From: Bacteroidia bacterium
GTDB lineage: Bacteria > Bacteroidota > Bacteroidia > M30B66
Assembly (NCBI GenBank): GCA_965279035.1
Contig: OZ257142.1
Location: 4,128,001-4,192,000, forward strand
Reading direction: 5' to 3'
DNA length: 64,000 nt
Below, in pieces: positions 37,581 through 38,329 of the stretch. The notes beneath the pieces were generated by a model. The model was given only the letters and a program-made list of their open reading frames with translations, was not told the DNA's origin and did not search any database. Numbering within the stretch: position 1 is the stretch's first letter; the number at the start of each line of letters is the position of its first letter. Position numbers and translations under genes: made by a program.

Positions 37581-37662
37581 GCCCAGATGGCGGAATTGGT
37601 AGACGCGTTGGTCTCAAACACCAATATCGCGAGATGTGCCGGTTCGATCCCGGCTCTGGGTA
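37581..37662 (+). tRNA. tRNA-Leu(CAA)
   Basis: GCCCAGATGGCGGAATTGGTAGACGCGTTGGTCTCAAACACCAATATCGCGAGATGTGCCGGTTCGATCCCGGCTCTGGGTA. TATTTTTG promoter upstream; AAAGCAGCTT..AAGCTGCTTT terminator downstream. Confidence 0.95.
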
Positions 37663-37900
37663 CATGAAAGCAGCTTTTTTAAGCTGCTTTTTTTATTTCC
37701 CGAATTGCTGTTCTGATAGTAAAAGGAACAATTCTGAATATGGAAAACTCTTAAATGCTATTTTGATTTTTTGCTAAGTGAGCACGGCACAAAGAAATTT
37801 AATTAAATAGATTTCTATATAATTTTGAGAATAGAACAGTATTTATACTTTTTATAAGTGATTTAGCGATTTTATTTTGGGGGATCATTAAATTAGGCAT

Positions 37901-38185
37901 ATGGCTGTTTTATACATATTATATTCTGAAAAATTAGACCTTTACTACACTGGTAATTGCTTGTCATTTGAAACTCGATTTGAAAACCACTTGAATAAAA
38001 GTTTTTCGAAAAGCTATACAACAAATGCAAATGATTGGAAACCTGTTCTCATTATTGAAGATCTAGAATATAAGCAGGCAAGATTTATAGAAAGACATAT
38101 AAAGAGAATGAAATCAAAAGATTTCATTCTTAACTTAAAAAAATATCCTGAATTAACGATTAAGTTAATTCATCTCTACAAATAA
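37901..38185 (+). CDS. Stand-alone GIY-YIG nuclease family protein
   Basis: LYILYS...YYTG, R-x3-H, YT, W, and E-x2-IK-x-MKS pattern typical of ~90-aa GIY-YIG proteins. Confidence 0.85.
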   Translation: MAVLYILYSEKLDLYYTGNCLSFETRFENHLNKSFSKSYTTNANDWKPVLIIEDLEYKQARFIERHIKRMKSKDFILNLKKYPELTIKLIHLYK

Positions 38186-38189
38186 TGCA

Positions 38190-38329
38190 GGCGGCTCCGA
38201 TAATTATCGGAGTGGTAGACGCGTTGGTCTCAAACACCAATATCGCGAGATGTGCCGTTCCGATAGGTATCGGAACGATCCCGGCTCTGGGTACATGAAA
38301 GCAGCTTTTTTAAGCTGCTTTTTTTATTT
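38190..38329 (+). pseudogene. Duplicated tRNA-Leu plus terminator, disrupted by two palindromic insertions
   Basis: Identical to 37589-37698 except AAT->CTCCGATAATTATCGGAG (38195-38212) and GTT->TTCCGATAGGTATCGGAA (38258-38275). The 5' acceptor strand is lost. Confidence 0.9.

Follow-up and report, generated by a model that had tools for sequence, protein, structure and literature searches.

The window analysed here is a 64,000-nucleotide (nt) stretch of the genome of a Bacteroidia bacterium (assembly GCA_965279035.1, contig OZ257142.1, positions 4,128,001 to 4,192,000 of the forward strand). At one locus within it, an intact tRNA-Leu(CAA) gene and its terminator are followed by a small stand-alone gene for a 94-amino-acid (aa) GIY-YIG protein, and 4 nt (tgca) past the stop codon of that gene begins a second, 5'-truncated copy of the tRNA gene and terminator (Table 1). 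The sole differences between the two copies are two swaps of 3 nt for an 18-nt palindrome, with 0 substitutions in the other 104 nt. A preliminary description of the locus, made from the letters alone, had set out this same anatomy, and it proved exact to the base. In the 64-kb window the palindrome core CCGATA-NN-TATCGG is found two times, each at this locus; shuffled sequences are expected to hold 0.11, and 1 of 100 shuffles reached two. The interrupted copy yields no tRNA call by ARAGORN or Rfam, and tRNA was the sole family matched in the Rfam scans.

Table 1. Features of the tRNA-Leu/GIY-YIG locus (window coordinates)
Feature	Position	Strand	Basis or remark
Intact tRNA-Leu(CAA)	37581..37663	+	ARAGORN; Rfam RF00005, 55.5 bits
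Repeat copy A, from tRNA position 9 to the terminator end; unmodified member of the duplication	37589..37698	+	Repeat families D1, D2
Intrinsic terminator of tRNA-Leu(CAA), 11-bp stem then T-run	37666..37698 (hairpin 37666-37691)	+	Terminator-site scan
Possible decayed palindrome, left edge of the gene cassette	37711..37728	.	Weak; 13/18 match to the 38258-38275 palindrome
Gene for 94-aa single-domain GIY-YIG nuclease (predicted), UPF0213/SLX1-like branch	37901..38185	+	PF01541, E 6.8e-8
Repeat copy B, 5'-truncated tRNA-Leu (from position 9) and terminator copy, interrupted by two palindromes	38190..38329	+	Repeat comparison
Palindrome 1, CTCCGAT-AATT-ATCGGAG	38195..38212	.	Replaces AAT 37594-37596 (tRNA positions 14-16, D-loop)
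Palindrome 2, TTCCGAT-AGGT-ATCGGAA	38258..38275	.	Replaces GTT 37642-37644 (T-stem/T-loop junction)
Duplicated terminator hairpin	38297..38322	+	Terminator-site scan

Duplications of tRNA 3' ends are a classic scar of integrative elements, and the locus could in principle be an integrase-type attachment (att) duplication, or an artefact of assembly, that carries palindromes by chance. The neighbouring genes are pth, L25, prs, a glyoxalase-like gene and a gene for a type IX secretion system (T9SS) protein; as had been noted before, neither an integrase nor a transposase is among them, and membership of an integrase-borne genomic island at the tRNA was rejected. The unique segment inserted between the tRNA copies amounts to only 490 nt, and of 80 related loci 74 contain the palindrome too. 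Three public runs yielded contigs that agree with the window across each junction and each palindrome, with 0 differences and at the depths expected of two copies; the contigs measure 574 nt (terminator, open reading frame (ORF) and palindrome 1), 117 nt (palindrome 2) and 102 nt (the unmodified path). Because these contigs reproduce the structure of the locus, the duplication is not an assembly artefact, a concern that the preliminary description had itself raised. The three runs share one organism label and come from two samples of one study; they may be the source strain, so their independent support is weak. We regard an ordinary origin of this kind as having almost no chance of being correct.

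The 94-aa protein matches PF01541 at 33.1 bits, above the cut-off of 22.6, and this is its sole Pfam family, so that an identity as an HUH/Y1 (IS200-like) transposase was not borne out. Residues Y5, Y16, R26, H30, E64 and N78 do not vary among 13 close homologues. A search by shared words returned 13 homologues, and a profile search 784 representative clusters at E<=1e-10. The AlphaFold2 model (predicted local distance difference test, pLDDT, 93.9) has a three-strand sheet with helices. In a profile search the nearest solved structures were 1zg2 (UPF0213, E 3.8e-7), 1ywl (4.7e-5) and SLX1 (E 5.7e-5); the top Foldseek matches were 1zg2, the I-TevI catalytic domain and Slx1, all at E > 0.001. 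The intact motif set and the confidently predicted fold together indicate that the protein is a member of the GIY-YIG superfamily. The profile for group I intron endonucleases, TIGR01453, reached 15.6 bits against a cut-off of 56, and searches of 50,697 phage records, 72,556 plasmids and IMG/VR returned no match to the protein. A structure prediction of two copies as a homodimer scored 0.02, which says nothing either way.

What sets this family apart from its relatives is its last helix (profile positions ~80-94), with a lysine/arginine-rich C-terminus; other subfamilies match positions 1-79 only. This helix is a candidate specificity element. The UPF0213 proteins BH0048 (PDB 1zg2) and EF2693 (PDB 1ywl) are likewise small and single-domain, and have no assigned function in the literature searched. 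SLX1, a near relative by profile and by fold, is a structure-specific endonuclease that depends on SLX4 and on a RING domain. The one pertinent remark in the accessible text of a 2006 survey of the GIY-YIG superfamily concerns a fusion of an Slx1-like domain to a TrmH-type tRNA methyltransferase (PMC1564403).

A scan of one genome per species returned 315 relatives of the gene, and the best 80 loci (46-59% identity, 420 kb) were examined. An intact tRNA or transfer-messenger RNA (tmRNA) gene lies on the same strand within 600 nt of the nuclease gene in 66 of these 80 loci, upstream in 46, downstream in 18 and on both sides in 2; nine of the 14 remaining loci are cut by a contig end. A fragment copy of the same tRNA or tmRNA gene stands on the opposite side of the nuclease gene, or in tandem, at 61 of the 66. 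The genes used comprise at least 11 isoacceptors as well as tmRNA: Leu (CAA, TAA, TAG, GAG, CAG), Val (GAC, TAC), Asn, Met, Thr, Phe and tmRNA. Ten loci hold tandem copies of the nuclease gene, two to five each. Downstream of a tRNA, the ORF usually begins 8-50 nt past the tRNA terminator; upstream of one, it comes after a duplicated promoter or leader and a 5' tRNA fragment. Given this placement, the gene appears to live off tRNA transcription. Upstream of the window ORF, a sigma-70 promoter scan found 3 sites against 5.0 expected, an uninformative outcome; the scan does not extend to promoters of the Bacteroidota type.

Four loci labelled Chitinophagaceae (L012, L013, L022 and L027) have the gene just upstream of a tmRNA gene, and upstream of it a duplicated tmRNA 5' end in which GTT is swapped for a palindrome. 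Two further loci, L026 and L078, sit on short contigs (3.1 and 1.6 kb) in bins labelled Comamonadaceae and Alphaproteobacteria. Labels of metagenome-assembled genomes may be wrong, and for these two Pseudomonadota-labelled loci mis-binning is more likely than an occurrence outside Bacteroidota.

The palindrome of the window belongs to a recurrent type. Its consensus across the loci is TCCCGAT-AGCT-ATCGGGA, an 18-bp unit of two 7-bp arms around a 4-nt centre. The pattern CCGAT-N4-ATCGG has 152 sites in the 420 kb, where ~0.4 are expected, and is found in 74 of the 80 loci. The preliminary description had predicted that stand-alone GIY-YIG homologues would be followed by tRNA copies with such palindromes; palindrome-bearing tRNA or tmRNA copies do accompany them, before or after the gene, and in 73 of 80 loci a palindrome lies within 300 nt of it. 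When the centre is allowed to vary (CCGAT-N(2-6)-ATCGG, the 152 N4 sites included), 145 of 159 matches fall within the same distance.

To map the insertions to the base, we used 65 palindromes in 47 loci for which both flanks could be aligned to the intact tRNA of the same locus. In 62 of the 65, the palindrome replaces exactly 3 nt. The replaced triplets are AGT (21), AAT (21), ACT (7), GCT (4), GTT (4) and others (5), and the sites are mostly positions 14-16 of the D-loop and the last three bases of the T-loop, with some in the anticodon loop or the T-stem. Such positions agree with the enrichment in loops that the preliminary description had proposed to look for. Since the T-arm insert of the window lies at a stem/loop junction and some other inserts lie in stems, loops are a preference and not a rule. 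Palindromes in the T-loop replace the A-N-T of GTTCG|ANT|CC; A-N-T is a self-complementary class, as would be expected if the cut were symmetric.

Other rearrangements involve the same unit. One palindrome is nested in another, again swapping out 3 nt; one relative has lost the segment between two palindromes; tandem units carry palindromes at their borders; and in one orthologous palindrome the centre has changed symmetrically. It is common for a spare tRNA copy to hold two to four palindromes whose flanks have kept 100% identity to the tRNA. Therefore, either insertion at these sites is rapid compared with point mutation, or the flanks are kept young by gene conversion. A templating of the palindrome half-site from the ORF was rejected, the 7-nt arm being present in only 1 of 94 ORFs.

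The palindromes could alternatively act as RNA. The preliminary description had suggested that the modified tRNA copy is co-transcribed with the nuclease as a decoy or partner, and in a broader form of this idea the palindrome-bearing fragments would serve as decoy, antitoxin or guide RNA. The layout is similar to that of type III toxin-antitoxin systems: a promoter, a tRNA or repeat array, a terminator and a small nuclease ORF recur in this order, tandem short repeats border the ORFs, and the fragments remain identical to the resident tRNA. However, across 187 sites, stem positions 1-7 are Watson-Crick paired in 90-97%, the outer two pairs vary only with compensation, the 4-nt centre is variable, and pairing drops to background outside the 18-mer; on the sense strand, G-U pairs show no excess over other mismatches. 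Thus, the unit is exactly 18 nt, and its symmetry looks to be at the level of DNA rather than RNA. Moreover, palindromes lie upstream of the gene at some loci and downstream at others, solo palindromes are found in either orientation and for the most part at a large distance from the gene, nothing but tRNA matches Rfam, and the 3-to-18 replacement and the nested palindrome are DNA events. A role as decoy or partner RNA found no support, and we consider an RNA-level partnership in general quite improbable.

Palindrome type co-varies with protein subfamily. The weaker matches, those limited to profile positions 1-79, are other small GIY-YIG subfamilies in tandem arrays beside tRNAs, and they come with different palindromes: TCCCGAC arms with a 2-nt centre (four loci), TCCGGCA, TGGCGCC, and TTCCGAT with a 5-nt centre. 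Five arm types are seen across subfamilies, and two loci of the main family have a CCCCGAA-arm palindrome. In a quick maximum-likelihood tree, in which few non-CCGAT loci were sampled, the 79 rows of the main family form one clade (support 99), every row being of CCGAT type or degenerate, and three of the four CCGAC loci fall in a separate clade (support 99). Subclades in this tree track tRNA identity, not taxon labels. Long tandem arrays of other small GIY-YIG subfamilies, each with a palindrome of its own and with tRNA fragments, are seen at L181 (G078:C2:364300-369156), L182, L183 and L186. One has 15 matches to the A2 profile, of which 13 form a run with a ~299-nt period on a single contig, and this array reaches the contig end; others have 8 and 6 matches.

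This co-variation, and the position of the palindromes relative to the ORF, bear on another possibility, that the palindrome is a homing site. The nuclease would recognise an existing palindrome and cut a few bases aside, the gene would be copied in by break repair, and the palindromes would spread by other means; the ORF would then end 0-30 nt before a palindrome whatever tRNA position that palindrome holds. A palindrome does start within 30 nt of the stop codon in 50 of 97 ORFs, with ~5-10 nt of tRNA sequence between, and 12 of these ORFs have their stop codon within the palindrome. In addition, a complete 3.56-Mb genome has a palindrome ~60 nt upstream of a distant GIY-YIG paralogue. The spacing is not fixed, however: 18 loci with a downstream tRNA have a palindrome 35-100 nt upstream of the start codon. 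Intact palindromes stand beside the gene, so that the site would be recut, and neither the exact 3-bp replacement nor the presence of several palindromes per spare tRNA copy is explained. We consider a homing site unlikely.

The palindromes are also dispersed through whole genomes. The pattern CCCGAT-N4-ATCGGG has 2-37 copies in five gene-carrying genomes, and a reversed-pattern control has 0. In a 201-genome sample of the phylum, 95 genomes have the palindrome versus 3 for the control; 52 have at least two copies, and the maximum is 57. All nine genomes with a close full-length family match have at least two palindromes, compared with 43 of the 192 others (Fisher p 3e-6, which ignores relatedness). 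The genome-wide count proposed in the preliminary description thus revealed a dispersed repeat, but most of its copies lie far from any GIY-YIG gene.

In the complete 3.56-Mb genome there is one close copy of the gene and there are 23 palindromes, two of which flank that gene. Both rRNA operons have a tRNA-Ile-like 3' fragment between tRNA-Ile and tRNA-Ala, with a palindrome in its T-loop; apart from the one near the distant paralogue, the remaining palindromes are solo and mostly non-coding. Seven of the 23 are in loops of inverted repeats of at least 6 bp, versus 3% of control positions. The rRNA-spacer palindromes (L091 and L095, at G001:C1 ~2,079,275 and 2,817,094) have no GIY-YIG gene nearby. 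Six solo palindromes of this genome (L081, L084, L090, L094, L097 and L099) share the flanks GGAACA/CGGAACA and lie just upstream of the gene starts of a paralogous family; they may represent one repeated 5' region or a preferred target.

Two known systems come closest to the one described here. SegB is a free-standing GIY-YIG homing endonuclease encoded in the tRNA gene cluster of phages T4 and T6 (PMC2330249; PMC13096335). According to the available parts of these reports, its cleavage sites lie within tRNA genes, at the T-loop motif RAWTSGAAC (PMC13096335), and it leaves mostly 2-nt 3' ends (PMC2330249); segmental amplification of tRNA-Tyr and segB depends on this activity and on phage recombination genes, and the surroundings of tRNAs of many isotypes are enriched in segB homologues (PMC13096335). 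As with SegB, the gene here is lodged among tRNA genes, free-standing beside its putative target gene in 66 of the 80 loci, and the T-loop palindromes fall within the T-loop motif of SegB. Unlike SegB, a phage protein with a DNA-binding part, the protein here is a 94-aa single domain encoded on bacterial chromosomes. The same parts of the two reports mention no cognate palindrome or 3-to-18 replacement for SegB (PMC13096335, PMC2330249).

The second is the association of REP/REPIN elements with RAYTs ('REPtrons'). As summarised in the accessible portions of three papers, these are short palindromic repeats, mostly non-coding, with a usually single-copy nuclease gene that is flanked by repeats; REPs are 20-40 nt long with at least 100 copies, RAYTs are HUH/Y1 enzymes, and the repeat co-varies with the protein lineage (PMC2817692, PMC3116915, PMC3337134). 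The palindromes here are similarly dispersed around a low-copy nuclease gene that they flank, and their sequence similarly follows the protein lineage. Unlike a RAYT, the protein is GIY-YIG and not HUH, and the palindrome has 18 nt and 0-57 copies. The exact 3-bp replacement and the strong tie to tRNA and tmRNA genes are further differences, neither being stated for REPs in those portions (PMC2817692, PMC3116915, PMC3337134).

Taken together, the window locus is best explained as a member of a widespread Bacteroidota module that combines a ~94-aa stand-alone GIY-YIG gene, a partial tRNA or tmRNA duplication and a clade-specific 18-bp palindrome, the nuclease being a selfish, SegB-like enzyme. 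We assign this explanation a probability of about 0.5. The gene, which in most loci has no evident promoter of its own, would be read from the tRNA promoter, by read-through of the terminator or from a duplicated promoter and 5' fragment. Within tRNA genes, the nuclease would break the DNA of the D-, T- and anticodon-loop regions at short, A-N-T-like sites, much as phage SegB does in T-loop DNA. Recombinational repair of the breaks would produce segmental duplications and tandem arrays of a tRNA piece plus the nuclease gene, and selection would retain one intact tRNA copy. At broken sites in the dispensable copies, the palindrome would take the place of 3 bp and so destroy the target site. GIY-YIG enzymes typically leave short 3' overhangs; if a 3-nt 3' overhang were lost and the end then joined to an 18-bp unit, the observed exchange of 3 for 18 could result. 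The palindrome would be the cognate DNA element of the nuclease, presumably recognised by the clade-specific C-terminal helices, and would spread more rarely elsewhere in the genome, preferring hairpin loops, as REPs do with RAYTs. The cutting of DNA by the protein, the position of the cut, the recognition of the palindrome and its copying-in are the parts of this scheme that we infer.

Several points weigh against this explanation. The single 94-aa domain is not accompanied by a separate DNA-binding domain such as those of SegB and I-TevI. To our knowledge GIY-YIG enzymes act by hydrolysis and are not known to transfer or ligate strands, and we know of no chemistry for a 3-to-18 replacement. 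The intact tRNA copy keeps its presumed target sites unprotected. The two palindromes of the window differ from each other in outer pair and centre within flanks that equal the tRNA, so that either they had separate sources or gene conversion keeps the flanks young. Targeting of hairpin loops is a tendency only. The Fisher tests do not take kinship among genomes into account, and among the 75 genomes with any match at E<=1e-10, many of these matches being to other subfamilies, 28 have at least two exact-pattern palindromes. Scans with prs found no close relative for an empty-site comparison, the prs of other genomes having <=73% aa identity in the metagenome scan and 65-70% in a DNA search of five genomes. 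Furthermore, a fragmentary 2.4-Mb genome (G083) has 57 palindromes and no family match even at E 0.01, and another genome has 26 palindromes and only a weak family match, on a contig (C29) without any listed palindrome.

Both of these palindrome-rich genomes have their palindromes within longer mosaic repeats. Those of G083 (L191-L203) also hold a second palindrome type, with the arm CCCGAC, and many of its palindromes lie 40-350 nt from contig ends. Such genomes would be expected if the palindromes were an independent REP-like family, moved by another enzyme and piling up in dispensable, hairpin-rich tRNA fragments, with the GIY-YIG gene an unrelated homing-type selfish gene that makes the duplications. 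The remoteness of most palindromes from GIY-YIG genes and the palindrome-bearing tRNA-Ile-like fragments of the rRNA spacers point in the same direction. On the other hand, 91% of the palindromes in the 80 loci are found in the ~10% of the sequence that lies next to the gene, different GIY-YIG subfamilies have different palindromes in otherwise identical architectures, and none of the nine genomes that contain a close member of the family lacks palindromes. The common core of the 80 loci has no HUH or transposase gene beside it, though no systematic search for one was made. An independent repeat family is, in our judgement, an improbable explanation. The central proposal of the preliminary description is supported: the data fit a minimal GIY-YIG module for which tRNA loci are targets, or are what it duplicates, and which is tied to cognate-hairpin insertion. 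Loops are a preference only, and the enzymatic link is a putative one.

The remaining observations concern the window itself. The possible decayed palindrome at 37711-37728 is bordered by the inverted repeat gaattg/caattc. By edit distance alone the site is not significant, degenerate palindromes at 2-3 edits being about as common as in shuffles (65 vs 27-48, and 508 vs 424-483). In a metagenome contig from run X5, 90-95% related to the window, an 18-mer past the equivalent of 37698 matches palindrome 2 of the window at 16/18; as the edit-distance matches are about at shuffle level, it is therefore this contig that argues for a decayed palindrome at the left flank. The X5 contig seems to carry the cassette as well. 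Runs X5-X16 contain at most a tenth of the sampled words, and no conclusion on habitat or strain is drawn from them. An 11-bp terminator-like hairpin lies on the - strand at 38105-38130, in the 3' part of the GIY-YIG ORF. Elsewhere in the window are a tRNA-Met (26633-26706) and, on the - strand, tRNA-Ala/tRNA-Ile (30027-30190), suggesting an rRNA operon spacer; there is no palindrome of the locus type near these tRNAs (26633-30190).

A stronger form of the SegB-like explanation is that the palindrome is a new minimal mobile DNA: the 94-aa GIY-YIG nuclease would recognise its own palindrome and write copies of it into 3-bp A-N-T sites of tRNA-gene and other hairpin loops, and the same breaks would amplify tRNA genes. 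We offer this form tentatively, with somewhat more doubt than belief. The literature searched, taken without supplements, contained no account of small GIY-YIG genes that are nested in tRNA duplications and have cognate palindromes, and they would thus make up a so far undescribed system; Supplementary Data 2-3 of PMC13096335, on segB neighbourhoods, could bear on an overlap.

If this proposal is correct, the small stand-alone GIY-YIG proteins of the UPF0213/SLX1-like kind, which are numerous and have no assigned function, would gain a role, and the system would be the GIY-YIG equivalent of REP/RAYT, working by a new 'replace 3, insert 18' chemistry. Were that chemistry real, the combination of a 94-aa protein, an 18-bp cognate site and an exact insertion signature could possibly be made into a tool. 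The breakage and amplification of tRNA genes of the SegB type would extend from phages to bacterial chromosomes, and this would account for one source of arrays of tRNA pseudogenes and of breaks in assemblies, many copies being at contig ends. For the Bacteroidota, the system would show how short palindromic repeats arise and spread.

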